Under the pieces are notes generated by a model, which was given only the letters and a program-made list of their open reading frames with translations, searched no databases and was not told the origin of the DNA. Below are positions 35,897 through 58,659 of a stretch of DNA of 64,000 bases, piece after piece. Location: positions 138,628-202,627 of the forward strand of contig JAHIVH010000129.1 in NCBI GenBank assembly GCA_018816735.1, written 5' to 3'. The position numbers and the translations under genes were made by a program. The stretch is from Pseudomonadota bacterium. Its GTDB lineage: Bacteria > Desulfobacterota > Desulfobacteria > Desulfobacterales > JAHIVH01. How positions within the stretch are numbered: the stretch's first letter is position 1; each line of letters opens with the position of its first letter.

Positions 35897-35901
35897 GTCA
35901 T

Positions 35902-36837: not shown

Positions 36838-36852
36838 TTCCGGACTCTCCTC

Positions 36853-36890
36853 AAAAAAAAATCCCCGAACCAAAACTCATGGCCGGGGAT
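36853..36890 (-). terminator. Intrinsic terminator-like hairpin forming the riboswitch expression platform
   Basis: Minus strand reads TCCCCGGCC-atgagttt-GGTTCGGGGA followed by T9, directly upstream of the RBS of the first operon gene. Confidence 0.5.
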
Positions 36891-37937: not shown

Positions 37938-37953
37938 TGGCATGTGGTGTGCA
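37938..37953 (+). promoter_or_regulatory. Sigma-54-type promoter candidate TGGCAT-N5-GTGCA
   Basis: GG (37939-37940) and GC (37951-37952) are separated by exactly 10 nt. About 90 nt upstream of the 38042 start codon (RBS AGGAGGA). Confidence 0.45.
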
Positions 37954-38041
37954 TTTTCGGCTTTTGGGAATTAGAAGTGTGCAGGAGAATTGGGAGAAAC
38001 GAATATTTTTTTAAGGGCTTTTAAGGATAAGGAGGAAAAAA

Positions 38042-38677
38042 ATGTTTTCATTATTTCAAAGCGGCGGTTCATTCATGTATGTGATTTTATGCGTCTCTAT
38101 TATTGCGCTGGCCCTTTTTGCAGAAAGAGCCACCTTTCTCTACTTCAAAATGAAAATGAATATTGAGGGCCCGTTTCAGAAAATAGTGAATGCTTTGGAG
38201 AAAATGAACTACAGGGGCGCCATTGAGGAATGCACCCGAATCGAGTCGCATCCCATGGGCAGAATCCTGAAGGCAGGTCTTTTAAAGGCCGATAAACGGG
38301 ACAAGGATATCGAGCGGGTACTGGAAGAGAAGATTTTACAGGAAATTCCTTTAGTCAAGGCACGAATCAATCTTCTGACCATGTTCGCCAATATCTCAAC
38401 TCTTCTTGGTCTTCTGGGAACCATTATCGGTCTGATCAGTGCATTTCAAGGCGTAAGCAGTGCCAATGCCGCCATGAAACAGGAAATCCTCGCTAACGGT
38501 ATTTCCGTGGCCATGCTGACCACGGCATTTGGTCTTATTGTGGCCATCCCCTGCCTGGCAGGTTATTATATACTGAATAACCGGGGTGAATATCTTATCG
38601 ATCAGTTCGAGGAAAAAGCATTGTCCCTATTTAACACATTGTCCTCCATAAAAAGAGATAAGGAAGCATCATGCTAG
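38042..38677 (+). CDS. MotA/TolQ/ExbB-family proton channel (AglR-like by context)
   Basis: Three-TM layout with the conserved C-terminal half (LGLLGTIIGLISAF, NGISVAMLTTAFGLIVAIP). Confidence 0.85.
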   Translation: MFSLFQSGGSFMYVILCVSIIALALFAERATFLYFKMKMNIEGPFQKIVNALEKMNYRGAIEECTRIESHPMGRILKAGLLKADKRDKDIERVLEEKILQEIPLVKARINLLTMFANISTLLGLLGTIIGLISAFQGVSSANAAMKQEILANGISVAMLTTAFGLIVAIPCLAGYYILNNRGEYLIDQFEEKALSLFNTLSSIKRDKEASC

Positions 38678-39183
38678 GAAGAGGCCGAAAAAGAAGAAAA
38701 AGTGAAGATGACGTGGAACTGGATATGGTCCCCATCATGAATATGTTTCTGGTATTGATCCCGTTTCTATTGATGTCGGCCAGTTTTTTTCACTTAAAAG
38801 CCATCAACACATCTGTTCCTGTTCTTTCAAATGGTGAAAATAATGATGCCATAAAACCGGATGACACAGTCAAGCTCACATTGATCGTTGAAATAAAAAA
38901 GGACGGTATCCACCTTTCGGCATCATCAGACAATGCGGAAGAAAATATTTTGGCAGGTATAGAAAAAACGTTCAGAATTACAGGGAAAAATGATTATCCC
39001 TTTGACGAATTCAGCACCTGTTTGAGGGATATAAAGGCAAGATATCCGAAAAGCGATACGGTGATCATTATTCCGGAGAAGAGTGTGATTTATGAAACCA
39101 TTATTCAAACCATGGATGTGGCACGATACTCAAAGGAAAGCCCCATGTTTCCGAAAGTCGTGTTGTCCGGGAAAGTAGGATAG
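38671..39183 (+). CDS. ExbD/TolR-like protein, a variant with Asn in place of the conserved TM Asp
   Basis: The TM segment LDMVPIMNMFLVLIPFLL aligns with PLIDIVF of the canonical ExbD in this window. The Asn codon AAT is at 38740-38742. 7-nt overlap with the upstream gene. Confidence 0.75.
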   Translation: MLGRGRKRRKSEDDVELDMVPIMNMFLVLIPFLLMSASFFHLKAINTSVPVLSNGENNDAIKPDDTVKLTLIVEIKKDGIHLSASSDNAEENILAGIEKTFRITGKNDYPFDEFSTCLRDIKARYPKSDTVIIIPEKSVIYETIIQTMDVARYSKESPMFPKVVLSGKVG

Positions 39184-39195
39184 GAGAACGTGTAA

Positions 39196-39681
39196 ATGGC
39201 ACTTGGCAAAAGAAGAAGACAAAAAGGTGCATTTATTCCGCCCAAACTTCAGATTACGTCCATGATGGATATGTTTACCATCATATTGATTTTTCTCCTG
39301 TTTTCATTTTCAGATAAACAGGAAACCCTTTCCCTTGATAATGACCTGCAATTGCCCACATCCAATGCCAAGCTCGATTATAATGATTCGATAAAACTCG
39401 TGCTCACCAAAACACAGCTGCAAATCGATGATAAAGTTGTTGCCAAAATCAGGGATGGTCAGGTTCAGGGGTTGAATCCAAATGATCTCAAGGCATCTGA
39501 GCTTTACAAACAACTGGAATCAAGAAAAAAGAACGATGACAGGACGCGTGAAGATGAAGAAAAGGACACCATTCTGTTTCTTTGCGATAAAAGACTTTCG
39601 TTTGATACGATAAACAGCATTGTAAAAACAGCGGGAATGGCAGGATATCCCAACTTCCAATTTGGCGTATTAAAAAAGTAA
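39196..39681 (+). CDS. ExbD/TolR-like protein (conserved TM Asp retained)
   Basis: LQITSMMDMFTIILIFLLF. 161 aa. Confidence 0.8.
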   Translation: MALGKRRRQKGAFIPPKLQITSMMDMFTIILIFLLFSFSDKQETLSLDNDLQLPTSNAKLDYNDSIKLVLTKTQLQIDDKVVAKIRDGQVQGLNPNDLKASELYKQLESRKKNDDRTREDEEKDTILFLCDKRLSFDTINSIVKTAGMAGYPNFQFGVLKK

Positions 39682-39688
39682 CGGGAAA

Positions 39689-40024
39689 ATGATGAAGAAC
39701 ATGACAGTGACAATGAAAAGAATGATTCAGTCAGGCATCCTGTTTATGCTGATGATGGCTGTATGCGTGACAACATCTTATGCTGCTGAAAAACAGCAGC
39801 AAGGCGCGAACCAGCGGCTTGAAAACCGGATAGATTTCGGAAACTCCTATATCCTGGGGCAGAGCATCAAGTCCGGCGCAGTATACCTTTTGCAGCGAAA
39901 AAAGTCTGATATCAACAGCATGCTTCATGTCAGGGAAAATTATCGAAAAGAGATATTGGAAGATTTTACGGTCAATGATTTAAGCATGGACGATAAAAAA
40001 GGGAATTCCAAAAAAGAAAAGTAA
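39689..40024 (+). CDS. Small secreted protein (position analogous to GltF/NfsF)
   Basis: Signal peptide (ILFMLMMAVCVTTSYA/AEK). 111 aa, no recognised motif. Called mainly on tight operon spacing. Confidence 0.5.
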   Translation: MMKNMTVTMKRMIQSGILFMLMMAVCVTTSYAAEKQQQGANQRLENRIDFGNSYILGQSIKSGAVYLLQRKKSDINSMLHVRENYRKEILEDFTVNDLSMDDKKGNSKKEK

Positions 40025-40077
40025 GATTTCCGTCCTTGGAAGGGCAACTTAATTACGAGACGAAAAGGGATAGCACC

Positions 40078-42675
40078 ATGTCAGTAAATGCGTTTAACAT
40101 CAATCAGCAAGACGAATTTAACGATAAAGATGCATCACTTCCGATTCCATCTGGTCGTGAGTCTTCAACCCAGAACCGTTTCGTTGTTCAATTTTTTATT
40201 TTTTATGGCGAAAATTTTCTGGGTTGGGATTGTTTTTACAAAAAGAAAATTGTTATTGGAAGTGACGACACAGCGGATCTGATTCTGGTTGGTGAACACA
40301 TCGAACCGATTCATGCGGTTGTCTATTTTAAAGGAGACCAGGTTATTGTCTCCGATAAATCCAGTAACACGGGCCTGGTCGTCAACAATCGTTCTGTCAA
40401 AACGATCATTCTCGGCAATTACGATTATATCGATATTGGCCCCTATACGCTTAAAATCAAGGTCAAGCAAAACCAGAATCCGGTTTCAGAGGCCCTCAAA
40501 ACAGATTCGTCCACTGTAAAACAGGGACATGGCGGAGATTCATCGTCTGTTTCAGAAAAAAGTACCGTAAATAGCCAGGCATCGTCCATCAATACCCAAA
40601 AGCCCAAAAAAGCCATTTATTATCCGTTAAAGAAAAATAGCCCGCTGGAGATTTTACCTGCATCAAACACCGAAAAAATTGTTTCTGAACCAGAAGAAAA
40701 CAAACCGTCGGCAATCGCTGCAAAGAACGAAACATCCTATCGGCTTGTCTGTCAGGGTGAGATCGCCCCTGATAAAGATCCTGTGGAAGTGATCGAAAAC
40801 CTGGCCGTGATGATGAAGAAAGAAAAAGACGAGGTCGAGAAGCTGGTTTCAGGTTCCAGGGTTATTCTTAAAAAAGATATCGATATGGCTGCCGCTGAAA
40901 GACTTCGGAAAACATTTGAGCGATTGGGCCTTATCGTTAATATTGAAAAGACGGGCACCGCAGTTGAGAATCAGGAAATAGCGAAACCGGCGGTCCGGGA
41001 AGAGCAGGTTGAAAGGCCTGTGGAAGAGATCCCCGATCAACAGGAACTATCGAAACCGACACAAGATAATCAGAAAGAAACACAAAAGGAAGAAAAACAA
41101 CCGTCCGTATTTGAGGCTGTACCCCAACCTGAGCCTGAAATGGAAAAAGATCCATTTCAAACCATGTCTTTTCAATACGATGACGACGATGACGATGACG
41201 ACGAACCCGATACAGTCGCGGATTTTTTACTGAGAGAAAGAATTCTTGATTCAGGTATAAAATCATCTTCTTCCAAATCATCCGGTCAACCTCTTGTTGA
41301 AGTCATGAAATACCGTTCAGATACGGTTATGGATATCACTTATTTAAATGTAAATGAAAAATACGTCATTCAACATGGAAAAGACAAATTCTGTCTGGCC
41401 CGCCATCAGAAAAAAAACGGCGGCCTGTTTTATTTTGATGAGGAGATAGAAGGTATCGTTCAGTATGACGCCTCCCAACAGAAAGAAATAAATTCCCTCC
41501 GGTCTGACGACCGCATTCATAAAAAAGGAAAGGGAGTTTACAGGGAATCCCTTCCGAAAAATGGTGTCGTCATTCTGACCGATGATGTGTTTACCTATCA
41601 TATCAGGATGGTAGACGGTATCGAACTTCCGGAGGTTCACATTGCTTCCGGAAAGAGTATCGGCTTTCATAAATTTCTGGCCAAGTCGTCTGTATTCCAT
41701 GTGGTCATGATCCTGCTTCTGTCTCTTATTTACGCACTGAGCCAGAAACCTATAGTAAAACCGCCTGAAACCTATTTCGTCAACATGGATATGGATACGC
41801 TGGCTGAAATAAATAGGGTCTTGAAACCGCCTGTCAAACCTCAACCAGAAGTGATGGATCTGGCAGAAGAGCCCCCAAAAACAGTTGAAAAAAAGCCGGT
41901 TCCCAAACCTGATGCCCCTCAAAAAAATGTGGCAAAAGCACCTGCCAGGCAAATCAGCAAAAAGGGGAAGGGCACTGTTTCAAGATCACCTAAAGCCGGT
42001 GGCGGATTTGGAGATGGCAACGTGGCAAACCGGAATATCAATGAAGCCGGTCTTTTGGGGATTCTGGGAACAGCCATGGATGCCGCCGCTCCCAGTCAGG
42101 CGCTTGCTGCCGTCACCAATCTCGATGCCGTGTCGTCTTCATCATCCCAAAATGCCAATTTCAAGGTGGGTGGAATCGTAGGGAAGCTTGGCACATCCAG
42201 GATCGAGTTGACCTCACCCGGAGATATAGGCGGAGGAACCAAAGGGGATAGACAGGTCTTGAGAAGCTACGGCGCCGGCGGAGAAGGAACCGTTGCGGCC
42301 CTTGAAAAAGGAACAACCGGTCAGAAACAGGTCATGGGTCTTGTCAAGGCCAATCTGACCAAAACAGTTACCATACAGGGCGGGATGAGCAGAGAAGCGG
42401 TAAAACGGGTGATTGACGAACATCTGGACGAAATCAGTTACTGTTATGAAACCGCCCTTATTTCCAATCCGTCGATAATGGGCAGAGTCGTATTTGAATG
42501 GAAAATTCTCGCATCAGGACGTGTCGGTGAAGTGACGATCAAGTCCTCTTCGATCAATTCAAACGAGATTCATTCATGCATTAAATCTTCAATCAAAACC
42601 TGGCAATTTCCCAAACCCACAGGAAGCGAGGTTGTCGTATCATATCCGTTTATTTTCGATATTGTCGGATTCTAA
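40078..42675 (+). CDS. FHA-like / single-TM / Pro-rich / AgmX-PglI-type (TonB_C-like) C-terminal domain protein (GltG/GltJ-like)
   Basis: FHA-like block IVIGSDDTADLILVGEHIEPIHAVVYFKGDQVIVSDKSSNTGLVVNNRSV. Long E/K/P/Q-rich region with the run DDDDDDDDEPD. TM helix FHVVMILLLSLIYAL. Pro-rich spacer. C-terminal GGMSREAVKRVIDEHLDEISYCYETAL...VVVSYPFIFD. ATG 40078 is preferred over the TTG at 40036. Confidence 0.8.
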   Translation: MSVNAFNINQQDEFNDKDASLPIPSGRESSTQNRFVVQFFIFYGENFLGWDCFYKKKIVIGSDDTADLILVGEHIEPIHAVVYFKGDQVIVSDKSSNTGLVVNNRSVKTIILGNYDYIDIGPYTLKIKVKQNQNPVSEALKTDSSTVKQGHGGDSSSVSEKSTVNSQASSINTQKPKKAIYYPLKKNSPLEILPASNTEKIVSEPEENKPSAIAAKNETSYRLVCQGEIAPDKDPVEVIENLAVMMKKEKDEVEKLVSGSRVILKKDIDMAAAERLRKTFERLGLIVNIEKTGTAVENQEIAKPAVREEQVERPVEEIPDQQELSKPTQDNQKETQKEEKQPSVFEAVPQPEPEMEKDPFQTMSFQYDDDDDDDDEPDTVADFLLRERILDSGIKSSSSKSSGQPLVEVMKYRSDTVMDITYLNVNEKYVIQHGKDKFCLARHQKKNGGLFYFDEEIEGIVQYDASQQKEINSLRSDDRIHKKGKGVYRESLPKNGVVILTDDVFTYHIRMVDGIELPEVHIASGKSIGFHKFLAKSSVFHVVMILLLSLIYALSQKPIVKPPETYFVNMDMDTLAEINRVLKPPVKPQPEVMDLAEEPPKTVEKKPVPKPDAPQKNVAKAPARQISKKGKGTVSRSPKAGGGFGDGNVANRNINEAGLLGILGTAMDAAAPSQALAAVTNLDAVSSSSSQNANFKVGGIVGKLGTSRIELTSPGDIGGGTKGDRQVLRSYGAGGEGTVAALEKGTTGQKQVMGLVKANLTKTVTIQGGMSREAVKRVIDEHLDEISYCYETALISNPSIMGRVVFEWKILASGRVGEVTIKSSSINSNEIHSCIKSSIKTWQFPKPTGSEVVVSYPFIFDIVGF

Positions 42676-42688
42676 GGAGCCACTATTT

Positions 42689-43417
42689 ATGAAAAACATT
42701 TTGTCATTTGTCATTGCCATCATGCTTGTTTTTTCCATGACAGGTCCGTTTTTACAGACTGCATCCGGTAAAGAAGCGGAACCGGTTTTGGTCATCCAAA
42801 ACCGGGTGTTTCACAAAAATCATGAACTTTCGCTGTCTTTCGGGTATGTTGCGGATGATGATTTTTTTAATGTATACCCGGTTGGCATCAGTTATACCTT
42901 CAATTTTTCGGATCATATCGCCTGGGAAGTGGCAAGAGCGCAATTCAATCTGACCCGGGAGAAAGATCTGAAAGGCAATCTTGAAAATGAATTCGGCGCC
43001 ACCCCTTCTGAATTCACCGAACCGATTTATTCCATTCATTCCAGTTTTGTTTTAAAACCGTTTTACGGAAAGGAATCGATTTATAACAAGCGCGTCATCA
43101 ACCATGAAACCTATTTCCTTCTGGGCGCGGGTATCGCCAATTTTGAACGGAAAAAAAGCTATGGAGATCCGGACACGGAAAATGCAATCTCCATCGGTGT
43201 GGGTGTTGGCAAGAAGTATTATATCAATAAGCACCTCTGTGTGAATTTTGAACTTCGGGACTATGTCAACCTGAAAGAAGACAATACCCAGAACACCATA
43301 TTCTTTGGCATGAGCCTGGGGTTGCGGTTCAATCTTCTGCCGCGGAAAACAGATAGCGACAAAACCATCGAGACATTGAACGACTACCTGAAAATGGGGG
43401 ATTCAAATGCTTTATAA
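42689..43417 (+). CDS. Outer-membrane beta-barrel protein (GltH/GltK-like position)
   Basis: Signal peptide (MKNILSFVIAIMLVFSMTGPFLQTASG). Alternating hydrophobic beta-strand pattern (HELSLSFGYV, VGISYTFNF, CVNFELRDYV, FFGMSLGLRFNL). The start at ATG 42689 follows GGAG. Confidence 0.6.
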   Translation: MKNILSFVIAIMLVFSMTGPFLQTASGKEAEPVLVIQNRVFHKNHELSLSFGYVADDDFFNVYPVGISYTFNFSDHIAWEVARAQFNLTREKDLKGNLENEFGATPSEFTEPIYSIHSSFVLKPFYGKESIYNKRVINHETYFLLGAGIANFERKKSYGDPDTENAISIGVGVGKKYYINKHLCVNFELRDYVNLKEDNTQNTIFFGMSLGLRFNLLPRKTDSDKTIETLNDYLKMGDSNAL

Positions 43418-44927
43418 CAGGCGTTTAGCGGGTTTCCTGGGGATATTCATTCTGATGCTGTCGGTCTTGGCAGGGCCTTACCAGAGCGACGTGTATGCCG
43501 TTTCTTCCAAAAACGAATCTGATAAGAAAGATCCAAAGGTCCAACCTGTCGTTGCAAATGAATATGATCGCAAGGATTTTGAAAAAGGCTATCATTACTT
43601 TGAAAAGGAAGATTATGAAGCGGCGGCGCCTTATTTTTATCGGTTTGTAAAAAATCATACAGCCGATGATGAAGACTATGAATGGGCGGAATTTTTTCTG
43701 GCCATCTCTCTTGCAAAAACCGGCTTTTCCCATGCATCGGTGGATATCCTTTCTATGCTGGTCACCCGGAAGCCCAATCAGAAAATTGTCACGTATGCCC
43801 TGGAAGTATTTGAAACGATAGTGAGGACAAAACCGTTTGACAGGGAACTGGTGATCAATCAGGCCATATGTGATCAGGATTATGGTTTTGTAGATGGCAG
43901 ACTCTCCAATTTTATTCATTACTATCAGGGCGTCTATGACTGGCAGCATGGATTTTTCGAGTGGGGAGACGGTCATTTCAGGAATATTTCAAAAGAGTCG
44001 TATTACTATTACAAATACCTGTACCAGAAGGCCAAACAGGAACTTCACAATGATAAAATCGATGAGGCTATCGCCACGTTAAAAACCATTATGGTGAGAG
44101 ATGTCAAGGAAACGGATCTGAAGGATGATGTGCGGAAAATGCTGGCAAGACTTCTTTATGAAAAAGAAGATTTCAAGGCAGCCAATCGACTGTATCAGGA
44201 CATTGAACAGAATATTCTGGATCAGTCCCAGAATCTCATGGAACTCGCATGGGTTCAATACAGACAGGGAAATCCGGAAAAAGCCATGGGGCTTTTATAT
44301 GCATTTGAGGCGCCTTCTTTTAAAAACAGTTTTACACCGGAGTACTTCATATTGAAATCGTTTATCTATAAGGATGTCTGCCACTACCAGCGTGCTTTGG
44401 ATGTGGTCGAGGATTTCAGGGCACGCTACGGGGATGCCCTTACCCATATCTATAACAGGAAAGAACCGATCACCAATGAAGCGTTGATACTCGTCCTTTT
44501 AGGTAAAAAACAGATCAACGATACGTTCAAATTCCTGAATCTTTTGACCAGGGAAAAAGAGAAGGTGAAGGGTATCAAGGACAGCGTGTTTCAATTCTAT
44601 ATGAACAGGCTCTATGATCTCAAAATAAGGGAAAGTGCGGAAACGCTAAGAAATCAGATTCAGGAGTCTTACGAAGAAATGGCCAATGAGCTTTTGAAAT
44701 ATGAGGAAGAAGCCTACCTGATGGCATATGAGATCGGTCTTGACATGTATCAGCGGGTTACGGATCACCATTATGCAGGTGAAGAAAACAAGGAACAAAA
44801 ATCTGACAAGGGAATCGTGGTATATCCGTTCCAGGGAGAATTCTGGAATGACGAATTATCAGATTATCATGTGAGTCTGCCGGATAAATGCAACCAAATG
44901 GAAGAATGGGATATCTTTTTCAAATGA
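43407..44927 (+). CDS. Exported TPR-repeat protein (GltE/NfsE-like size and position)
   Basis: Signal peptide, then repeated TPR-like A/Y/L patterns (FEKGYHYFEKEDYEAAAPYFYRF, YEKEDFKAANRLYQDI, YRQGNPEKAMGLL). Overlaps the upstream gene by 11 nt. Confidence 0.7.
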   Translation: MLYNRRLAGFLGIFILMLSVLAGPYQSDVYAVSSKNESDKKDPKVQPVVANEYDRKDFEKGYHYFEKEDYEAAAPYFYRFVKNHTADDEDYEWAEFFLAISLAKTGFSHASVDILSMLVTRKPNQKIVTYALEVFETIVRTKPFDRELVINQAICDQDYGFVDGRLSNFIHYYQGVYDWQHGFFEWGDGHFRNISKESYYYYKYLYQKAKQELHNDKIDEAIATLKTIMVRDVKETDLKDDVRKMLARLLYEKEDFKAANRLYQDIEQNILDQSQNLMELAWVQYRQGNPEKAMGLLYAFEAPSFKNSFTPEYFILKSFIYKDVCHYQRALDVVEDFRARYGDALTHIYNRKEPITNEALILVLLGKKQINDTFKFLNLLTREKEKVKGIKDSVFQFYMNRLYDLKIRESAETLRNQIQESYEEMANELLKYEEEAYLMAYEIGLDMYQRVTDHHYAGEENKEQKSDKGIVVYPFQGEFWNDELSDYHVSLPDKCNQMEEWDIFFK

Positions 44928-47900: not shown

Positions 47901-48355
47901 ACAGCCTGAAAGATGAGGATACAAAGATCCTTCATGAAAAATTGATGAAACATTCCAATGATGCCGGTCTTCTTTTATCTCTGTCATCTGCGTTCATCAA
48001 CAAGGGAGATTATCGTCTTGGCCTCTTAATCGCCCAGAATGCCCTGTCCGGGATAAAAACCGGAAAGAGTGAGGTCAAGGCAGATTTGTACAATAATATT
48101 GGCGTGGCTTATCTCTTCATGGGGCAGGACGAGCTTGCAAAAGACGCATTTAAATCATCATTGGAAAATTCCGGAAAAAATATCGGCGCCCAGGTGAATC
48201 TGGCAGGCCTTTATTCGTATTATGGACATGAAAGACGTGCCTATTCGATCTATGACACACTTCCGGGTACAAAGCTGATCGAAGAAACCGGTCAGATCAT
48301 TCACCCAAAAGCAAAAGAACTCTACATGGCCCAGCGTGGCGGGAAAAGGAAATAA
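44924..48355 (+). CDS. Large exported TPR-repeat protein (GltD/NfsD-like size and position)
   Basis: Signal peptide (LKKIIGVCLFVLLLSEWSGMVLA), then more than 15 TPR-like units (for example LLGDYFMGKGDVDMAKRHYEKVI, KLAWCHINNADYKSAIHLFEDAV, NIGVAYLFMGQDELAKDAFKSSL). ATGA start/stop overlap at 44924. Confidence 0.75.
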   Translation: MKKGHMLKKIIGVCLFVLLLSEWSGMVLAAVDQYGYQQTNQDEERKKYIAKLLEDRQKVEMAILNTRSLIDKSRNRPYLPELYLRLAELHIEKSRIAFFVRKNQRDGESSSLDQFESNTLKNRALEIYQRILDDFPDFQDQDKVHFFMAHEFRELNKTDEMIAHYREIIRKYPNSSYVPESYLLLGDYFMGKGDVDMAKRHYEKVIDYPFSQAVVIARYKLAWCHINNADYKSAIHLFEDAVSQSENLKNIDIDTYRRVDVKQEALIDMAYCYTECYKDSTPEEALTYFQKYSWSRQVYVVVLEKLAYRYLLKKKWHHAALVYRQLSILQQDADKLLDYSKNIFECVQAMGKFDDVDQDMAIIVKALKKQKYAADVTDEVKAKNVKDYELYARDLATHLHQKARKDKSADDFRRAADAYKTYLEFFNESPVKQEMNVNYSEALFSSKDYLHAGKQYEKLALASEKDPKNRKENLYSSVISYYTAIKNKDNLDSYELAFARGGLKETGKSYAKEFPTSRYVEDVLFNVAWISYDAGNYDDAIKDFSEFVNKYPGGKPASAAVHLILDAYHLKEDHEGLIAYGRKVLADNRIRDSKLKQDVVQIVKATESKVVSNLTIAAMDDWEKGKSELLDLAEDSTTSGMGEQALNALIISAKDKDDLQALFTGGNTFIKKYPKSDKLESTMNAMIDSSLKINQYRMVASYLESFAEKFPKNKVAQDFLNQAGQIRKNLGQNELSNRNYIRILNTYSMNDGVADEVVFNMADNYIALNKDDGAISVMEGNLKKLSETGKVRAEAMIAGLYLKKGQEKNALKYRKMAYSDYSGKTAGKDPALDEAFAEMAFHAVQRNYNDYSALQLKGKIDNTVVARKAKLLEDLEKGYQSIMGYPSPVWVLSACYYAARINHEFARFLIESPLPELSADQKENYLKIIQQKADGYSKKGDQYLDTFVKQAKKLEICDSKVAGLVDLSSGKVTQKGRMQSFNGSEERVSVAQNSLKDEDTKILHEKLMKHSNDAGLLLSLSSAFINKGDYRLGLLIAQNALSGIKTGKSEVKADLYNNIGVAYLFMGQDELAKDAFKSSLENSGKNIGAQVNLAGLYSYYGHERRAYSIYDTLPGTKLIEETGQIIHPKAKELYMAQRGGKRK

Positions 48356-48358
48356 ACC

Positions 48359-49699
48359 ATGTTCTTTATGAAACATATTTTAATCGGTTTTGTCATTTTC
48401 TTCATCGGGTGTGGTGGCGGCGGTTCCGGTAACAGCGGTGATGACAGCTCAAACAATGACAATGACACAACCTCACAGGAATGGGTCTGGGAGAAAGCAA
48501 AGATCACAGAAATAGACGGTGGCGGCATGCTGACACCTAACATCATTGCATCCAAAGGAAATGCCCATGATGTGCACATTGTCTATTTTGAAGATGATAC
48601 GGCAAATGGATATGCCATAAATCACCTGATCGTAGATGACAGCGCGTTTACAGTATCTGCCGAAGATAAAATTCTCTCGGTTGACAATTGCAGAACATTG
48701 GGCGTTTCAGGTGCTGCATCAGGCACGCCTGTTGTGGCTTATCAGGGGGGTGAAATAAGGGAATGCGGTTCCGAACAGCAGTCTGATGCCATGATAAGCA
48801 TTTGGAGTGGCAACGCCTGGACCGAATATACAGCAGGAATCGGATATGTGGAAAGAAATCCCGTGTTTCAGGATGGCCTGGCCGGGAAAACCGTGGCAAC
48901 AGCCATGGATTCGAAAGGAGATATCCATGTCTGCTATCAGTTCTTTTATGAAGGATGCGATGCCATGAATTTTAATTTTCCGGACCTCCTTTATGTAAAA
49001 AAAGATGGCGCGAATCTTTCCGCAGCGAGTGCTGAAGAAGTCGTTACCGGAAATGTCTATAATCCCAACGGTACGGCAAGCGAGCAGAACAGAATCGGGG
49101 ATCGGGTGGCTATCATGGTGGATGAAAACGACGCGCCTGTTATTTTTTACGATGCCGATCTTTCACCTGTCATGCCGGACCCGGATGAGAAAGGGCTTCG
49201 GGTGTCACGAAAAACAGGGGACCGTTTTGAGCATGCCTGGATCGAAACCGGCATTAAGGTCGCCTATTTGAGCTGTGCCATGGATAAGGACGGAAACCCT
49301 GCGGTGGCCTACTATATAGAAGATGAATATGAAGATACAACCGGAACTCACGAGAAATGTCTGAAATTCGCCATATTGAAAAATGACCAATGGACGGTTC
49401 AGATGGTGGATGAAAGCGTTCTCTGCGGCAATTACTGCTCGCTATCCTTTGATCAGAATGGAAATCCATGGATTGCCTATTATGCGGAAGGCAATCACAG
49501 CGGCAGTATTTCCATGAAGGATCTGAAAGTCGCGTATGATGATGGTACGGCCTGGAAGAAAGAAGTTGTTTCAGAAACAGGAGATATCGGCAGTTTCAAT
49601 ACCCTGTGGTTTGATACGGATAATATGGCACGGATTTGTTCCTATGAAAAAGTCGGGAAGGCAATTTATATGTTTGTTCAGCGTGAAGGAGGACAGTGA
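48359..49699 (+). CDS. Lipoprotein with seven internal D-x-x-G-x-P-x-[IV]-A-Y-type repeats (probable 7-bladed beta-propeller)
   Basis: Lipobox FFIGC followed by GGGGSGNSGDD. Repeats: KGNAHDVHIVYFED, ASGTPVVAYQGG, DSKGDIHVCYQF, DENDAPVIFYDA, DKDGNPAVAYYIED, DQNGNPWIAYYAEG, DTDNMARICSYE. Confidence 0.65.
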   Translation: MFFMKHILIGFVIFFIGCGGGGSGNSGDDSSNNDNDTTSQEWVWEKAKITEIDGGGMLTPNIIASKGNAHDVHIVYFEDDTANGYAINHLIVDDSAFTVSAEDKILSVDNCRTLGVSGAASGTPVVAYQGGEIRECGSEQQSDAMISIWSGNAWTEYTAGIGYVERNPVFQDGLAGKTVATAMDSKGDIHVCYQFFYEGCDAMNFNFPDLLYVKKDGANLSAASAEEVVTGNVYNPNGTASEQNRIGDRVAIMVDENDAPVIFYDADLSPVMPDPDEKGLRVSRKTGDRFEHAWIETGIKVAYLSCAMDKDGNPAVAYYIEDEYEDTTGTHEKCLKFAILKNDQWTVQMVDESVLCGNYCSLSFDQNGNPWIAYYAEGNHSGSISMKDLKVAYDDGTAWKKEVVSETGDIGSFNTLWFDTDNMARICSYEKVGKAIYMFVQREGGQ

Positions 49700-50493
49700 T
49701 GAAAACAGTTAGATTATTAATAACAGGTATACTTTCGTTTTTGCTGTTCAATATCCATGCAACAGCGGATATCGATCCCAATGCATGGTTTGACGAATGC
49801 CCGGACGCCAATTGCGGTGCACCGCCTGCAGGTGGTGTGGGCGGTGGTGGCGCAGGGGGCGGTCCCATTGTCGTCAGTTATGATTTGGGACCGTTATGGT
49901 CCCTTGAGGAAGATGCAGACGCAGATGGTGTACTGGATACCCGGGATAATTGTCCCTATCTTGAAAACGACCAGGAAAACTATGATGGGGATGACTACGG
50001 GGATGCCTGCGATAACTGTCCGGCGGTTGTCAATAATGATCAGGAGGACACGGACGGTGATGGCACGGGCGATGCCTGCGATGGCGATATAGATGGGGAC
50101 GGCCTTTCAAACAGCCAGGATAACTGTTCTCTTGTATCAAATCCCCTTCAGACAGATACGGACGGCGATGGCATAGGGGACCTTTGTGACGACGATGATG
50201 ATAATGACGGCATCCCGGATACAGTGGATAACTGCAGCAAGGAACCGAATCTTGATCAGGCGAATGCGGATTTTTATATGACAGGCGATACCCTGGGCGA
50301 TGCCTGTGACGACGACTGGGATAATGACGGGTTTACAGATGATGTCGATCTCTGTCCACGGTCACATTCGGATCTGAATTCAGATACAGATGGCGACGGC
50401 ATAGGAGATGTGTGTGATAATTGTCCGAGGATTTCAAATTCGGATCAGGCGGATTCAGACCAGGACGGAAAAGGAGATGCTTGTGATGGCTAA
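49696..50493 (+). CDS. Secreted thrombospondin type-3 (TSP3) calcium-binding repeat protein
   Basis: Signal peptide and a Gly run (GGVGGGGAGGG), then about ten DxDxDGxxDxCD(N)CP loops (for example DTDGDGTGDACD, DTDGDGIGDLCD, DSDQDGKGDACD). The start overlaps the upstream stop. Confidence 0.8.
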   Translation: MMKTVRLLITGILSFLLFNIHATADIDPNAWFDECPDANCGAPPAGGVGGGGAGGGPIVVSYDLGPLWSLEEDADADGVLDTRDNCPYLENDQENYDGDDYGDACDNCPAVVNNDQEDTDGDGTGDACDGDIDGDGLSNSQDNCSLVSNPLQTDTDGDGIGDLCDDDDDNDGIPDTVDNCSKEPNLDQANADFYMTGDTLGDACDDDWDNDGFTDDVDLCPRSHSDLNSDTDGDGIGDVCDNCPRISNSDQADSDQDGKGDACDG

Positions 50494-52087
50494 GGGTAAG
50501 AACACCTATCTTATGATTTTTTTATCGTTCCTGTTGATGGTTGGCTGCACCAGCAGTCCGCCTCTTGAACGGACCCAGGAAAGACGGCAGGTGACGCTGT
50601 CCGGCTCGTTTCTGACCGAAAGCCCGGATGAAATCAATTTTCCGGTCAAAGTCCTTTTTGCCATCGACTGCTCGTTAAGCATGGGCGATGAAGAAGTCGG
50701 CGTTGTGGCCGGTTCGGATCCCTATTTTTTAAGAATCGAAGCGGTCAGAAATTTTATCAATGAATACAACAGCAATGAAAACACGTCCTTTGAAGTGATG
50801 CTGTGGAGCAATACGGTGTTTGAAACCACCCATGGATTTACCAAAGACCCGGCTGTTCTCGATAATATCCTTACGGATGTTCAAAATGATACAACCACGG
50901 ACTACCTGGGAACCCTTGATGAAATGTTTGTGGATATCCGAAACGATATTCTGGATTCAAATGAAGAGAACCGTGTCAGATCAAAATACGTCGTGGTGTT
51001 TCTGAGCGACGGTGTATCAAACGCCCAGGGCATGATTCAGGATGACGCCGATATCTGGAACAGCGTGGAAGATATCAATGACATGGTTGCGGAATATGGT
51101 GTGGGGTCGTTTAATTTTCATACATTCCTCCTCCTTGGAAATTTCGGAGCAGATGCAAGCGGTCAGGCTGCACTGGCCCATGCGGAAAATACCCTTCAGG
51201 GCATGGCAGAAAGGGGAGATGGCCAGTTCAGACTGTTTGAAAATGCGGAAGCAATTGATTTTATCAATATTGTGGATATGCGGCTTACCGTGGAATACGA
51301 TGTTAAATTTATGGTGGCCTATAATTTCAATGTGCGCCCGGGAATCGATCTGATCTACGTGGACAGCGATGGGGATGGCCTTTCAGATGAAGAAGAAGAA
51401 ATGTATGGCACGGATCCGACCCTTAAAGATTCGGATGCTGACGGGTTTTCGGACTTTTTTGAAATCAAGCTAAGCTCACCCGGACATGTTCTTGATCCCC
51501 TTGACCCGGCTGACAGCAATTGCGATGCAGGCGTCACAGGAATCGATTCGGACAGTGATGGATTGTCGGACTGCGAGGAGTATGTCAAGGGCACAAACAG
51601 GCTCAATCCGGACTCGGATTCCGATGGCATCCCTGATGGCATCGAGTTTCTGACAGGAACCAATCCCCTGGAGGAACAGCAGGCAGTGGATACCGATTTT
51701 GATGGTCTGCTCGATTGGCTAGAAGTTCAGCGGCATTCCAATGTCTCCTCCAATGATGAGATCATCCGGGAACGGTACAGCTATAACTACGACATCAGGG
51801 ATGGTGGACTGGTGGAGATTGATCAGGGAACGGAAATGGCGTCTTTCGTACGTCAGTATGAATTTGATATCTCAAACATCGATGTCATGGAAACACTCGG
51901 GTATACAATGGCAAATGGTGAAGCGTGGCTTGAAGGTGATAATTTGATCCGCTTTTATCTGGCGGAAGTACCGGAAGATACGCCTGACCATGCACCGGTT
52001 TTCAGAGTGGCGGAAGTGATTGTAAACATCAATGATGATGATAAGCATATTGTGTTGTCGCCTGCGGATTTCAAACTTATACAATAG
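50486..52087 (+). CDS. Lipoprotein with a VWA-like domain (DxSxS MIDAS) followed by TSP3 repeats (CglD-like architecture)
   Basis: Lipobox LLMVGC. VLFAIDCSLSMGDEE (DxSxS) and VVVFLSDGVSN. Five TSP3-type loops (DSDGDGLSDEEE, DSDADGFSD, DSDSDGLSD, DSDSDGIPD, DTDFDGLLD). ATG 50486 lies 10 nt after AAGGAG and overlaps the upstream gene by 8 nt. Confidence 0.75.
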   Translation: MAKGKNTYLMIFLSFLLMVGCTSSPPLERTQERRQVTLSGSFLTESPDEINFPVKVLFAIDCSLSMGDEEVGVVAGSDPYFLRIEAVRNFINEYNSNENTSFEVMLWSNTVFETTHGFTKDPAVLDNILTDVQNDTTTDYLGTLDEMFVDIRNDILDSNEENRVRSKYVVVFLSDGVSNAQGMIQDDADIWNSVEDINDMVAEYGVGSFNFHTFLLLGNFGADASGQAALAHAENTLQGMAERGDGQFRLFENAEAIDFINIVDMRLTVEYDVKFMVAYNFNVRPGIDLIYVDSDGDGLSDEEEEMYGTDPTLKDSDADGFSDFFEIKLSSPGHVLDPLDPADSNCDAGVTGIDSDSDGLSDCEEYVKGTNRLNPDSDSDGIPDGIEFLTGTNPLEEQQAVDTDFDGLLDWLEVQRHSNVSSNDEIIRERYSYNYDIRDGGLVEIDQGTEMASFVRQYEFDISNIDVMETLGYTMANGEAWLEGDNLIRFYLAEVPEDTPDHAPVFRVAEVIVNINDDDKHIVLSPADFKLIQ

Positions 52088-52128
52088 GCGTTTTGAAACA
52101 CGGGACTTGGGAGTAAAGGAGAAACGTT

Positions 52129-54396
52129 ATGAAAAAAATACACTATCTAATTCCGGTATTCATGTTGCTGTTGGCTTCATGCGGCGGCCTGGGCAGTTCG
52201 TCTGATGATTCGGATACGGCGGAATTGTCTTTGAACAAGAAAGTCAAGGGAACGATTTCAAAAGAAGGGGAAGTGGACTGGTACCGCTTTCGGGCGGTTG
52301 ACGCCAATGCACTTCTGCAGGTCAAGTGCACCAGTGAAACCTTAAGGCCGGAAGTCGATCTTTTGGTGGGCGTATATCAGGAAGACACCAATGGAAACAA
52401 GGTGCTCATATATGCCGATCACGCGCCGGACGGAGGCATGTCCCCGGCTGACCTTACCCTTCATGCCTATATTGATGTTCCCAAGGATATTTATATCTCC
52501 GTCCGGGATCTGATGGATGATGATTTCTCGGATAATCCCTATTATATTTCCGTTGATATGGAAGCTTCTGCCGAGGAAAATGACAGTTTTACAACAGCAA
52601 CCACCCTGGCCGTGGATGACGGTATGGGGGCCTCGGACAACATCGGCCGAGTGGGGGATATCGACTGCTACCAGTTTACATCAACTGGCGGTGTTTATGA
52701 TGTCAACGTGGAATTCACCCCATTTGCAGGCACGAGTGTCCAGTTGTCCGTAGATTTATATGACAGCGAAGGAAATATCGTGGGTTCCCAGACCAGCGCC
52801 ACCAGGAAAAGCTATCATCTGATTCACTTTCTTCCTGCCGGCCTGTATTTCGTTCATATCGATGACTATGGCATGAATGATTTTGACACGGCATCCACCT
52901 ATACGGTTTTCGTAAATACCGTAACTGCCGATGAAGCAAATGAGAATGATTCCTCATCTCAGGCGGAAACCGTGAATATGTCTTCCTGGAATACGGATGT
53001 GACGATCACAGGTACCATCGCCTATGCGGAAGACAAGGATTACTACCTGCTTTCACTTCCATCACCCCTTGACGGTTTCAGGGTGCTTGAACTGAGTTTT
53101 TTTGCGGCATCATCGTTTGAATACAACATCCATCTGTTGGATCAAAACCTGAATACTGTATTTTCCCAGACATATAAAGGGGGATCAACCCTTTTCCATA
53201 CCCTATTGAAACTGGAATCCGGCAACGCATATCTGGTTATAGAGCCTGTGACCGGCACAACCGGTTTTGAATCGTCTTCTTATACGGCCACCCTTCAGGT
53301 ACAGAATATCGTGGATGATGCAGACACGACGCCAAATGAAAACGATACGATTGATACGGCAGATACGCTGACGCCTTCAAGCAATCCGGCATCTGCCACA
53401 TCCGGAAAAATTTCCTACAGAGGTGATGCAGACTGGTATTCATTAACCATTGCCGCTCATGCCTCGCCGCAGATTCTGGAAGTGTTTGTAAACGCCCCCT
53501 TATCTTCAGTGGCTTACGCCTTAACCGTTATCGGCGATTCTGTGAATGAAAAAATATACAACAGTCATCCGGAAACCATCCCCACGCAACTGAAAACATC
53601 ATTCCTGGTGTCTGCCAATGATGAATCAGCTGTGTATTCTTTCCGCGTGGGCGATTTTCAGGATGATGACGGCGATGATGCAGCTTATACCATCCGTGTT
53701 GATTTGAAGGATATTCCCCCCACGCTGCCAGCGGTGGCGCAAACAGCATCCCCATATGGCGCAACCGTCGCCTATTATAATGAAGTAAATGATACTGGCG
53801 GAAACGAAGTTACCCTTGAATACAATCCGGTTACGAAGAAAACCTTTAATGCCGATACCACCCGCCTTGATTTTGCCAATGCAACAGTGGAACAGAACAC
53901 GCCTGCAGATGGTCAAACCCGACTCACATTCCCATGGATCGGCGGCTATATCGATTATCAGGGAGATCAGGACTGGTTCATGATCGATTTCCAGCCGCTT
54001 GACAGCTCAAGCACCTGGTATTACGAACTGTCAGTGGAATTTTATGCGCCTTCGACGGATGTGGAATATGTGTGGAAATTCTATCCGGACAGAAACGACA
54101 ATGATGTGATGGCCGAGCAGTCAAGCGGTTATGACGGATTTATCGCAAGTGCAGGTGACACGGGTATTTCAGAGGCCGCCTTTGATATCACCACGCCCGC
54201 ACAGGGCGACAGCGATTTCTGGGTGGGCCGCTCATGGCAGGGCCAGGCCTTTTTCAGCATCAGTGATTTCAACTATCTCTATGACGAAACAGAGGCGGAC
54301 AACACCGTTCCAGACGACGACTGGGGCGGATACGGCCAGGCGCCATATTATTTCAGATTAACCCTTATCTATCATCCAGGCGTTTCAAACCCCTGA
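52129..54396 (+). CDS. Lipoprotein with five PPC-like (pre-peptidase C-terminal type) modules
   Basis: Lipobox LLLASC. Recurrent G-x-I-x(3-4)-D-x-D-W/Y-Y motif: GTISKEGEVDWYRF, GRVGDIDCYQF, GTIAYAEDKDYYLL, GKISYRGDADWYSL, GGYIDYQGDQDWFMI. Confidence 0.65.
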   Translation: MKKIHYLIPVFMLLLASCGGLGSSSDDSDTAELSLNKKVKGTISKEGEVDWYRFRAVDANALLQVKCTSETLRPEVDLLVGVYQEDTNGNKVLIYADHAPDGGMSPADLTLHAYIDVPKDIYISVRDLMDDDFSDNPYYISVDMEASAEENDSFTTATTLAVDDGMGASDNIGRVGDIDCYQFTSTGGVYDVNVEFTPFAGTSVQLSVDLYDSEGNIVGSQTSATRKSYHLIHFLPAGLYFVHIDDYGMNDFDTASTYTVFVNTVTADEANENDSSSQAETVNMSSWNTDVTITGTIAYAEDKDYYLLSLPSPLDGFRVLELSFFAASSFEYNIHLLDQNLNTVFSQTYKGGSTLFHTLLKLESGNAYLVIEPVTGTTGFESSSYTATLQVQNIVDDADTTPNENDTIDTADTLTPSSNPASATSGKISYRGDADWYSLTIAAHASPQILEVFVNAPLSSVAYALTVIGDSVNEKIYNSHPETIPTQLKTSFLVSANDESAVYSFRVGDFQDDDGDDAAYTIRVDLKDIPPTLPAVAQTASPYGATVAYYNEVNDTGGNEVTLEYNPVTKKTFNADTTRLDFANATVEQNTPADGQTRLTFPWIGGYIDYQGDQDWFMIDFQPLDSSSTWYYELSVEFYAPSTDVEYVWKFYPDRNDNDVMAEQSSGYDGFIASAGDTGISEAAFDITTPAQGDSDFWVGRSWQGQAFFSISDFNYLYDETEADNTVPDDDWGGYGQAPYYFRLTLIYHPGVSNP

Positions 54397-54528
54397 AAAA
54401 AATCCGGCAAGCGCCAATCAGGCGTTTGCCGGACGTTTTGCAAACATTTGATTTACATACACACAAATATCGTGATAAGGGTTTTTGACCTATTGAAAAA
54501 CACTGCGGCTTAAAAGTGATGACATTGA

Positions 54529-55230
54529 ATGGAAGATAATACCTATACGATCCGATATCATTTCCTTTTTAAAAACGGAAAAGAAAATACATTTGATGTG
54601 AAGATCGATTCATCAACCATGTTGAATCTTTTACCCCAACCTGAAAACAAACCGTTCTGGACGGAGCTCGATTACCATCAATGCGAGTGCTGCCCCCTTG
54701 ACAAGGCACAGGTTTCCCATTGCCCTATTGCGCTTAATATAATGGGGCTTATCGAGGCATTCAAAAATGTCATGTCATCAGAAAAATGCCAGGTATCCTG
54801 CATCACACCTGAAAGAACCTATTCCAAAGAAGTCGATATCCAGAATGGGCTCTTTTCAATTTTCGGCATCATCAATGCCACCAGCAGTTGCCCGATCATG
54901 AGCTTTTTTAAACCCATGGCGAAGTTTCATCTGCCCTTCTCCACCATTGAAGAGACCAAGGTAAGGGTCATATCATTTTATCTTCTGTCCCAATATTTCA
55001 AACAGGAAAAAAGCGATACAATAGACATCCAGCTTGAACAACTGGAATCCTTTTATTCCAAAGTAGAACTGCTCGATGCGGGGATCCTAAACAGAATCCG
55101 GGGAATTTCTGACAGTGATGCAGATAAAAATGCCGTTATTATCCTGAATTCCATAGCGCAATTAATCTCAATGGAAATTGATGAACAACTCCAATCGATA
55201 GAAGATATTTTTAAAACAAGTGGATTTTAA
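54529..55230 (+). CDS. Cytoplasmic hypothetical protein with a C-x-C-C-x9-C cysteine cluster
   Basis: No signal peptide. DYHQCECCPLDKAQVSHCP cluster. Last ORF before the terminator, 132 nt after the preceding gene. Confidence 0.5.
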   Translation: MEDNTYTIRYHFLFKNGKENTFDVKIDSSTMLNLLPQPENKPFWTELDYHQCECCPLDKAQVSHCPIALNIMGLIEAFKNVMSSEKCQVSCITPERTYSKEVDIQNGLFSIFGIINATSSCPIMSFFKPMAKFHLPFSTIEETKVRVISFYLLSQYFKQEKSDTIDIQLEQLESFYSKVELLDAGILNRIRGISDSDADKNAVIILNSIAQLISMEIDEQLQSIEDIFKTSGF

Positions 55231-55297
55231 AATTTATCATTTGTTCGGTTTTTACGGGAAGAGGATGATAAGCGTTTTCGTTTGCTTAAGCTAAAGA

Positions 55298-55338
55298 ATA
55301 AAAAAGGCAGAGCAAAATACAGCTCTGCCTTTTTTTTG
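55298..55338. terminator. Bidirectional intrinsic terminator hairpin
   Basis: AAAAAA-GGCAGAGC-8 nt loop-GCTCTGCC-TTTTTTTT, located between convergent genes. Confidence 0.65.
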
Positions 55339-58596: not shown

Positions 58597-58659
58597 AATA
58601 TAAGTGATTAGGGTATTTTATAAATGTTTAATTAATATTAGGATATAGGAATTATTCAT

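Follow-up and report, generated by a model that had tools for sequence, protein, structure and literature searches.

A conserved twelve-gene operon of Desulfobacterales encodes an Agl/Glt/Nfs-type envelope core and Mts-like surface proteins

Twelve tightly packed genes form one conserved unit

We analysed a 64,000-nucleotide (nt) stretch of DNA from a member of the Desulfobacterales (hereafter the window; contig JAHIVH010000129.1, positions 138,628-202,627 of the forward strand), and we describe here an operon that it carries. Thirteen open reading frames (ORFs) read in one direction between 38042 and 55230 (+). The first twelve, g1-g12 (38042-54396, +), form a tightly packed operon, and they are the unit that is conserved in related genomes. 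Judged by sequence similarity, g1-g8 are an Agl/Glt/Nfs-type core; g9-g12 encode accessory proteins whose families recur at the mts loci of Myxococcota. The features of the operon are as follows.

37938-37953 (+): sigma-54-type -24/-12 element TGGCATgtggtgTGCA, 104 nt upstream of the g1 ATG
38042-38677 (+): g1, AglR/TolQ/ExbB-like proton channel, 211 aa, three transmembrane (TM) segments (PF01618, E-value (E) 1e-28)
38671-39183 (+): g2, first ExbD/TolR paralogue (AglQ/S-like), 170 aa (PF02472, E 9e-14)
39196-39681 (+): g3, second ExbD/TolR paralogue, 161 aa (PF02472, E 7e-11)
39689-40024 (+): g4, small exported GltF/CglF-like protein, 111 aa (NCBIfam CglF, E 6.5e-7, 29 bits; cutoff 90)
40036-42675 (+), likely ATG at 40078: g5, GltG/PglI-like protein (FHA, E 4e-9; NF033768, 113 bits, cutoff 40)
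42632-43417 (+), likely ATG at 42689: g6, GltA/GltB-type outer-membrane (OM) beta-barrel (TIGR04565 OMP_myx_plus, 90 bits, cutoff 60)
43407-44927 (+): g7, GltC-like periplasmic TPR protein, 506 aa (NCBIfam GltC, E 6e-28)
44888-48355 (+), likely start at 44924: g8, GltD-sized exported TPR protein, about 1143 aa (many TPR families, YbgF-like repeats)
48359-49699 (+): g9, lipoprotein with seven repeats of about 55 aa, 446 aa (lipobox FFIGC; G-x-P-x-[IV]-A-Y-Y motif seven times)
49696-50493 (+): g10, exported TSP3 calcium-binding protein, 265 aa (TSP_3, E 3e-43; NCBIfam MtsC, E 1.7e-63)
50408-52087 (+), likely start at 50486: g11, lipoprotein with VWA and bacterial TSP3 domains and a C-terminal beta domain (VWA, 25.4 bits, cutoff 23.8; TSP3_bac, E 7e-12)
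52129-54396 (+): g12, MtsF-like lipoprotein with five PPC-like beta-sandwich modules, 755 aa (lipobox LLASC)
54403-54431 (+): hairpin resembling a terminator, immediately 3' of g12; 13-bp stem, then ACGTTTT

Most of the genes overlap or are separated by very short gaps. g1 and g2 overlap by 7 nt (38671-38677) and g6 and g7 by 11 nt (43407-43417), while g7 and g8 share an ATGA overlap (44924-44927) provided that g8 starts at the ATG giving MKKGHML. g9 and g10 overlap by 4 nt (49696-49699), the GTG start codon of g10 and the stop codon of g9 having two bases in common, and g10 and g11 overlap by 8 nt (50486-50493) provided that g11 starts at MAKGKN. At the boundary between core and accessory genes, g8 and g9 are 3 nt apart; elsewhere in g1-g12 neighbouring genes are separated by 3-41 nt. 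A preliminary description of this DNA, made from the sequence alone, had placed junctions at 38671, 43407, 44924, 49696-49699 and 50486, and the ORF coordinates and translations bear out all of them.

The hairpin behind g12 has a predicted folding energy of -27.7 kcal/mol (z -6.1); among 200 shuffled sequences there was none that folded equally well. Beyond it lie two further features.

54529-55230 (+): g13, DUF6901 protein (PF21842, E 6e-73)
55300-55335 (either strand): strong bidirectional terminator hairpin between g13 and a convergent gene, 14 bp, with an A-tract and a T-tract

g13 starts 132 nt past g12, so that it sits between the operon hairpin and this bidirectional terminator, and no homologue of g13 is found 3' of g12 at any syntenic locus. 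We define the unit as 12 genes because a strong hairpin stands directly 3' of g12 and because g13 is not part of any syntenic relative. Thus, the co-directional block of 13-14 genes in the preliminary description does contain 13 ORFs at the places given, but g13 is separate and not conserved. Similarly, of the two elements that had been thought to bracket the block, the sigma-54-type element stands (see below), whereas the hairpin at 55300-55335 is the terminator of g13 and/or of the convergent gene, the operon's own being that at 54403-54431.

The first eight genes encode an Agl/Glt/Nfs-type core

The motor genes g1-g3 belong to the ExbB/TolQ and ExbD/TolR families and are distinct from the housekeeping members of these families. 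g1, which has an AGGAGG 8 nt ahead of its ATG, scores 73 bits against the TolQ equivalog model (cutoff 221); its scores for the TolQ and ExbB equivalogs of NCBIfam are far under the cutoffs, and it shares 28% identity with the window's conventional ExbB. A canonical TonB-ExbD-ExbB set with a TonB-dependent receptor is located at 28930-34030 (-), as expected from the preliminary description, which had noted a conventional set 8 kb upstream. Genes for TolA, TolB, Pal or a TonB-dependent receptor were not found within the operon, and the ExbB, ExbD, TolQ and TolR scores are all far under the equivalog cutoffs. We conclude, since a canonical ExbB-ExbD-TonB set with its receptor lies elsewhere in the window, that the operon is not the housekeeping Ton system; the missed cutoffs and missing partner genes agree with the earlier statement that it is not a housekeeping Ton/Tol system. 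The conventional set is part of an uptake locus (28930-36873, -) that encodes TonB, ExbD, ExbB, a 436-aa protein, a TonB-dependent receptor, an ABC ATPase, a FecCD permease and a BtuF-like binding protein.

The two ExbD paralogues differ at the conserved TM aspartate. In an alignment, g2 has the motif VPIMNMF, with Asn in place of this Asp, as do its orthologues in two complete genomes described below (L084, 5619-6077; L085, 5696-6205), whereas g3 keeps the Asp within a conserved TSMMDMF motif. Both paralogue types are kept in L084 and L085, and g3 orthologues are also present in loci L003 and L005. The two types pair with the two ExbD genes of a myxococcotal locus (L030), where Asp is found in both copies. 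The combination of Asn in g2 and Asp in g3 implies a putative heteromeric stator with one type of proton-binding subunit.

The products of g4-g8 are, in order, GltF-like, GltG-like, GltA/B-type, GltC-like and GltD-sized, and signal peptides are readable in the translations of g4, g6, g7 and g8, as well as in that of g10. A 133-aa M. xanthus gene at the position of MXAN_1331 matches the g4 profile (1e-15) and itself matches the CglF model (1e-8). g5 consists of an N-terminal FHA domain (37 bits, cutoff 20.7), an acidic linker, one TM segment, a Pro/Lys-rich linker and a TonB-like AgmX/PglI C-terminal domain. It matches the GltG model in part (E 5e-33, 114 bits against an equivalog cutoff of 650), and BLASTP aligns it with MXAN_1330, the FHA protein of M. 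xanthus cluster G5, over both the C-terminal region (9e-31, 34% identity) and the FHA domain (5e-15). A short tandem DNA repeat at 41177-41211 encodes eight Asp residues and then Glu in the cytoplasmic linker of this protein. The g6 profile matches both barrels of locus L011, a 7.3-Mb metagenome-assembled genome (MAG); the window operon has a single barrel gene where L011 has two. g7 scores 98 bits over positions 111-429 of the 622-position GltC model, under the equivalog cutoff of 450, and a G5-type protein of Myxococcota scores 75 bits against the same model; the g7 profile finds the G5-type protein of L011 at 1e-101. A protein with 100% identity to g7 is recorded as KJ737_26810 in a Proteobacteria MAG, and the window therefore derives from that assembly; an exact look-up of the g10 sequence gave no match. 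The g8 profile finds, at 3e-145, the protein that occupies the GltD position in the G5-type cluster of L011.

All of the domain assignments that had been made for the first half (MotA_ExbB, two ExbD, FHA with AgmX/PglI C-terminal domain, OM barrel and two TPR proteins) were recovered. Its likeness to the Glt/Nfs systems is likewise supported, by the matches to AgmX/PglI (113 bits), GltG (5e-33), GltC (6e-28), CglF/GltF (6.5e-7) and OMP_myx_plus (90 bits). The 506-aa TPR protein is GltC-like (6e-28) rather than GltE-like. There is no GltE-type gene in the operon, both TPR genes being accounted for as GltC-like and GltD-like, and we found no GltH, GltI, GltJ, GltK, CglB or AglZ/MglA-type component in the operon or elsewhere in the window.

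The accessory genes encode a predicted surface module with VWA and TSP3 domains

Lipoboxes are readable in the translations of g9, g11 and g12. The seven-repeat lipoprotein call for g9 holds. The protein is probably a beta-propeller, and BNR_4 matches 3 of 14 g9 relatives. The repeat unit (residues ~303-430) is common in giant repeat proteins, with as many as 22 copies in proteins of up to 6384 aa; it is found in 5486 representative proteins at E<=1e-3, and about 40 clusters have the full-length form of ~450 aa.

g10 and g11, called a TSP3 protein and a VWA/TSP3 lipoprotein from the start, keep these calls (TSP_3 at 3e-43; VWA at 25.4 bits together with TSP3_bac). g10 scores 215 bits against MtsC, under the cutoff of 350. 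[quoted passage not shown] It is not an MtsD equivalog, because it scores 114 bits against a cutoff of 800. An AlphaFold2 model of g11 from a 24-sequence alignment has a mean predicted local distance difference test (pLDDT) score of 69 and a VWA fold. Searched with Foldseek, the model matches VWA domains of adhesins and receptors at E 3e-7 to 1e-4, namely those of ITIH1, CMG2, the Mfa5 pilus tip, LapA, the PilB pilin and RrgA.

In g12, the G-x-I...D-x-D-W-Y module can be seen five times. PPC (PF04151) matches 5 of 14 members of the family, with a best E of 2.6e-8. Hence the description of g12 as a lipoprotein with five PPC modules is supported by the modules and by the relatives, although the match of the window protein itself is not significant. 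A T9SS (type IX secretion system) sorting domain was considered for g12 and rejected, as the match is weak (E 0.003) and lies mid-protein.

A GspC-like gene (type II secretion system protein C with a PDZ domain) is present elsewhere in the window, at 3382-4257 (-). Myxococcus proteins with a MYXO-CTERM tag, such as MtsC, leave the cell through the type II secretion system; g10 has no such tag.

Core and accessory genes stay together across Desulfobacterales

In eight other Desulfobacterales loci, gene order is that of the window for every operon gene present. Two complete Desulfobacterales-type genomes (L084, 7.66 Mb; L085, 6.48 Mb) have g1-g12 in the same order and nothing more. Four loci run through g12 and reach upstream to g3 (L003), g4 (L004), g3 (L005) and g5 (L010, a Desulforapulum autotrophicum MAG), this reach being set by the 10-kb flank collected. 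The remaining two are limited by contig ends: L002 has g8-g12 and L083, from Desulfatiferula olefinivorans, has g1-g8. Protein identity across these loci is 26-71%. We found no conserved genes flanking the operon; its neighbours are unrelated between genomes. The survey of relatives thus supports the synteny of core and accessory genes, with all 12 genes in L084 and L085 and partial spans in six loci. It supports equally the proposed coupling of the accessory half to the core, in which start and stop codons overlap at gene junctions and the gene order matches in eight loci whose flanks differ.

A sigma-54-type promoter element precedes the operon

Upstream DNA was available for four genomes (the window, L083, L084 and L085), and in each an element of the form TGGYAT-N6-TGCA precedes the first gene by 70-143 nt. 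Both the GG-N10-GC spacing of this element and its flanks are as in sigma-54 promoters. The pattern occurs once in the window when both strands are scanned (expected 0.38), a statistic that is only indicative because the pattern was refined after viewing the four sites. By contrast, a scan with a loose sigma-54 consensus (two mismatches) gave 66 matches in the window against 58 expected, which is not significant. We call the promoter because the element is conserved in four genomes, not because of the loose scan. The sigma-54-like promoter of the preliminary description therefore stands as a conserved element, although it would not be significant on its own against the loose consensus. No sigma-54 activator gene is encoded in the 64-kb window.

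The convergent gene (55391-56902, -), which encodes a 503-aa Cys-rich exported protein with DUF7507/DUF11 repeats, has the sole perfect sigma-54 consensus of the window, TGGCACaaaaaTTGC (57078-57092, -), about 176 nt upstream. The 56-58 kb region around it has a GC content of only 0.335.

The accessory families are linked to Glt-like genes in other phyla

Pairwise BLASTP was too weak to place g9 and g12: g9 gave nothing against the protein in the MtsA position of a bona fide mts locus (L007; MtsC 554 bits and MtsD 858 bits, both over the cutoff), and g12 gave motif-level similarity only to the protein in its MtsF position. We therefore used family profiles of g3-g12, built from the Desulfobacterales orthologues and searched against all collected loci.

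The profiles match a series of genes at the M. xanthus locus around MtsD (L086). Its minus strand carries four genes, which encode a product of 538 aa, a barrel of 211 aa, an FHA protein of 756 aa and a protein of 133 aa. Across a gap of about 100 bp, the genes for MtsA (820 aa), MtsB, MtsC, MtsD, MtsE and MtsF follow on the plus strand, so that G5 and mts are divergent. The first group corresponds to cluster G5 of Luciano et al. 2011, in which MXAN_1327 is a GltD homologue, MXAN_1328 GltC, MXAN_1329 GltB, MXAN_1330 GltG and MXAN_1331 GltF. The following matches to M. xanthus proteins were obtained.

211-aa barrel: g6 profile, 3e-35
756-aa FHA protein: g5 profile, 8e-69
MtsC: g10 profile, 4e-65
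MtsE: g11 profile, full length and best fit, 1e-74
MtsD: g11 profile, 8e-52
MtsF: g12 profile, 2e-17
448-aa protein 3.5 kb past MtsF: g9 profile, 3e-12

MtsC is MXAN_1334 (PMC12475490), and a role in cell-cell cohesion, S-motility and development is ascribed to it (PMC11980579). The NCBIfam naming of MtsC agrees with a role in cohesion.

The same families recur at other mts loci. The g10 family (MtsC) and the g11 family (the paralogues MtsB, MtsD and MtsE) are always present at bona fide mts loci. The g12 family is the gene of ~700-800 aa after MtsE, that is MtsF, and is present wherever the mts locus extends that far; its profile finds the gene in the MtsF position of L001, L006, L011 and L039 at 1e-20 to 1e-31 (at 1e-26 to 1e-31 in the first three). 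The g9 family is found near the mts genes in most bona fide mts loci, with profile matches to proteins beside mts in L001, L006, L008, L014, L020 and L039. Generic TSP3 loci in other phyla contained none of the other accessory families, and most of the 80 loci scanned are generic TSP3 proteins of this kind. It follows that the second half of the operon, which had been thought to be undescribed, is made of known families, since all four recur in Myxococcota mts loci.

Glt-like genes accompany mts in several arrangements. L011 has the divergent layout of M. xanthus, with the GltD-like gene and two barrels described above. In L008, GltF- and GltG-like genes are downstream of mts on the same strand, and in Bradymonas sediminis (L001) a GltA/B-type barrel and a TPR gene are in this position. 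In L030, the two ExbD genes are upstream of the mts genes.

Several mts loci that have no Glt-like neighbours have an FHA-sigma-54 activator nearby. Activators of this kind, with an N-terminal FHA domain, adjoin mts genes in Myxococcota at L007 (4498-5886), L020 (3457-4803), L022 (4135-5442), L039 (5477-6862) and L088 (21640-21950), and they recall two features of the operon, its sigma-54-type promoter and the FHA domain in its GltG-like protein. The G5/mts intergenic region of M. xanthus contains no convincing sigma-54 element.

The operon resembles cluster G5 and mts more than the gliding or sporulation machines

Of the systems compared, M. xanthus G5 with mts is the nearest. As in the window, GltF-, GltG-, GltA/B-, GltC- and GltD-like genes share a locus with MtsC (g10), MtsD/E (g11), MtsF (g12) and a g9-like lipoprotein; the core order F-G-B-C-D of MXAN_1327-1331, beside mtsA-F (MXAN_1332-1337), is identical to that of the window, and in both a GltE homologue is lacking. 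The two differ in that M. xanthus has two divergent operons and motor genes elsewhere (the candidate being M2, MXAN_3003-5), whereas the window has one sigma-54-type operon that includes the motor. M. xanthus also has MtsA, MtsB and an MtsC with an Ig-like domain and MYXO-CTERM, whereas the window has a single g11-type gene and neither MtsA nor MtsB.

The Agl-Glt gliding machine has the same motor-to-barrel path (AglRQS, GltG, GltD, GltF, GltC, GltA/B), and its adhesins are, like those of the window, a MIDAS VWA lipoprotein and a TSP3/COMP-like calcium-binding protein. However, the window lacks GltE, GltH, GltI, GltJ, GltK and the cytoplasmic regulators, and its scores are far under the equivalog cutoffs; moreover, CglB and CglD are encoded apart from the glt genes, whereas the adhesins of the window are inside the operon. 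The Group B core of Luciano 2011, or basal transport machinery of Wartel et al. 2013, resembles the operon in being a stand-alone Agl-like motor with a simplified Glt complex, in bacteria not known as gliders. That set (AglRQS with GltC, D, E and G) was described from gamma-proteobacteria, Geobacter, Fibrobacter, Bdellovibrio and Myxococcales, and no Desulfobacterales (Luciano 2011). Compared with it, the window adds GltF-like and barrel genes and a fixed four-gene adhesin module, and lacks GltE. Agl-Nfs is a further paralogous Glt-like complex driven by the Agl motor, with a task in surface assembly; it handles the Exo glycan in sporulation and has no TSP3 or VWA partners. The window layout is nearer to G5. 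TonB-ExbBD and Tol-Pal share with the window the ExbB/TolQ-type channel, the ExbD/TolR-type subunits and the TonB-like C-terminal domain, but the operon has two ExbD paralogues, one without the TM Asp, and no TonB-dependent receptor, TolB or Pal.

The core thus belongs to a kind already described (Luciano 2011; Wartel 2013), and among the relatives of the accessory proteins are ones that carry names. In the literature searched, we found no description of a G5-mts partnership, nor of any Glt-like system in Desulfobacterota. The question of what the Glt-like core does, and likewise the M. xanthus paralogues G4, G5 and M2, dates from 2011-2013 (Luciano 2011; Wartel 2013).

A proposed role in the display of adhesins

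The two halves are fused in one phylum and repeatedly linked, in different arrangements, in another; we therefore argue that they work together. With modest confidence, we favour the view that the operon encodes one trans-envelope machine of the Agl/Glt/Nfs class, of G5 subtype, with Mts-type surface proteins as its dedicated partners. We lean to the same extent towards a function for it, that of a Glt-like transducer, driven by the proton motive force (PMF), that would retain, expose or activate calcium-dependent, integrin-like Mts adhesins. There is precedent in the Glt OM platform: it recruits CglB, a VWA lipoprotein, and keeps it in place and exposed, and in gltA, gltB and gltK mutants CglB is shed (PMC9946355). 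CglD, a calcium-dependent TSP3/COMP-like and VWA lipoprotein, belongs to the same Glt apparatus (10.1101/2023.10.19.562135). We favour retention or exposure of adhesins because of this precedent with CglB and CglD.

In such a machine, the TolQR-like stator (g1, g2 and g3) would turn proton flow into conformational work. This work would be taken up by the GltG-like g5, with its FHA domain in the cytoplasm and its TonB-like C-terminal domain spanning the periplasm, and would pass to the GltD-like scaffold g8 and, with g4 (GltF-like) and g7 (GltC-like) as connectors, to the OM barrel g6. A structural model of the gliding machine gives a comparable force path, from AglRQS to GltG, to GltD with GltF bridging, to GltC and to GltA/B (PMC11761067). 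The barrel platform may then hold the calcium-binding, integrin-like module g9-g12 and switch its exposure or adhesive state, and the outcome would be a regulated, sigma-54-dependent, calcium-dependent cohesion between cells or between cell and surface. We infer the use of the PMF, the contacts between parts, the relation of the accessory proteins to the core as cargo and the cohesion phenotype from analogy with these systems.

Several observations weigh against this reading. We infer the tie between the Glt-like core and Mts from gene linkage and homology, and a Glt-like neighbour of mts was found in 4 of the 11 loci examined (with a 10-kb limit); none lies within 10 kb of mts in Stigmatella aurantiaca, L088, L006, L007, L020, L022 or L039. 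A polar insertion in MXAN_1327, the last gene of its cluster, left gliding and twitching visibly normal (PMC3169522). The mts genes, by contrast, reportedly matter for S-motility, so that Mts function in M. xanthus may not need G5. As for the proteins themselves, g8 is a putative GltD counterpart, and neither it nor the G5 protein of L011 has a GltD-type match in NCBIfam. The single-sequence AlphaFold model of g9 (pLDDT 38) is unusable, so that its fold is not established. In the alignment, g10 lacks the Ig-like domain and MYXO-CTERM tail of MtsC, and the window has no counterpart of MtsA (820 aa), with MtsB matching only as a further g11 paralogue.

Among the alternatives, a compact gliding apparatus, with the VWA/TSP3 proteins as substratum adhesins in the manner of CglB and CglD and carriers that glide, seems unlikely to us. 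The operon does have most of the set that Luciano 2011 regarded as marking a potential glider (AglRQS, GltC, GltD, GltF, GltG and an A/B-type barrel), and the architecture of g11 is like that of the gliding adhesins CglD and CglB. The preliminary description had presumed a non-gliding organism, which is an assumption, and some Desulfobacterales (Desulfonema) do glide. However, GltE, GltH, GltI, GltJ, GltK, a second barrel and a cytoplasmic connector of AglZ/MglA type are missing from the operon, and its closest characterised relatives are G5, whose disruption was motility-neutral, and mts, reported not to act in A-motility (PMC12475490).

Alternatively, the core could be an Nfs-like polymer handler that moves or organises an exopolysaccharide or surface layer, with the TSP3, PPC and propeller proteins binding glycans instead of joining cells, a reading that we hold to be rather improbable. 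Agl-Nfs moves the spore-coat glycan, and the core has been proposed to be a basal transport machine specialised by its cargo (PMC3858216); PPC- and BNR-like modules are often carbohydrate-binding, and a sugar-nucleotide cluster lies 3.5 kb downstream. Yet neither this cluster nor any other flanking gene is conserved with the operon, genes for glycosyltransferases or polysaccharide export are absent from the 12-gene unit, and the accessory proteins are homologous to cohesion proteins and include a VWA domain with MIDAS. The least probable alternative is that the halves are co-transcribed yet independent, the core being a Ton/Tol-type maintenance or uptake system and the Mts-like proteins ordinary secreted adhesins: g1-g3 are in the ExbB/ExbD superfamily, g8 has YbgF/CpoB-like repeats and mts genes stand without Glt-like neighbours in several Myxococcota, but TolA, TolB, Pal and a TonB-dependent receptor are missing from an operon whose window has its canonical Ton system elsewhere, the junctions are translationally coupled, the eight related Desulfobacterales loci all keep the order despite differing flanks, and the linkage recurs in three arrangements across Myxococcota and Bradymonadota.

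The operon combines motor, transducer and a four-protein adhesin set in one transcription unit, and the same families are neighbours in M. xanthus, for which an mts cohesion phenotype is reported. The linkage makes the function of the Glt core testable in the genetically tractable M. xanthus, as control of Mts display by G5 and M2. Widespread sulfate reducers of sediments might, as the operon also suggests, draw on inner-membrane energy to control aggregation or attachment. More tentatively, Mts adhesins may be the native cargo of the G5-type Glt machine: the ancestral job of Agl/Glt would then have been PMF-driven control of adhesins for cohesion, gliding with CglB and CglD would be a later elaboration, and Desulfobacterales would have kept the operon undivided, which would assign a function to M. 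xanthus genes that are orphans so far (G5, perhaps also the M2 motor). We regard this as possible, though doubtful.

Other genes in the window

The nucleotide-sugar cluster downstream of the operon (57832-63863, +) encodes a nucleotidyl transferase, epimerases/dehydratases, a C-methyltransferase, a dTDP-sugar 3,5-epimerase and an amine oxidase-like protein, and is not conserved with the operon. Further upstream, at 14747-18625 (-), a sucrose-phosphate synthase/phosphatase fusion is encoded next to an amylase-family gene, which suggests sucrose or compatible-solute metabolism.

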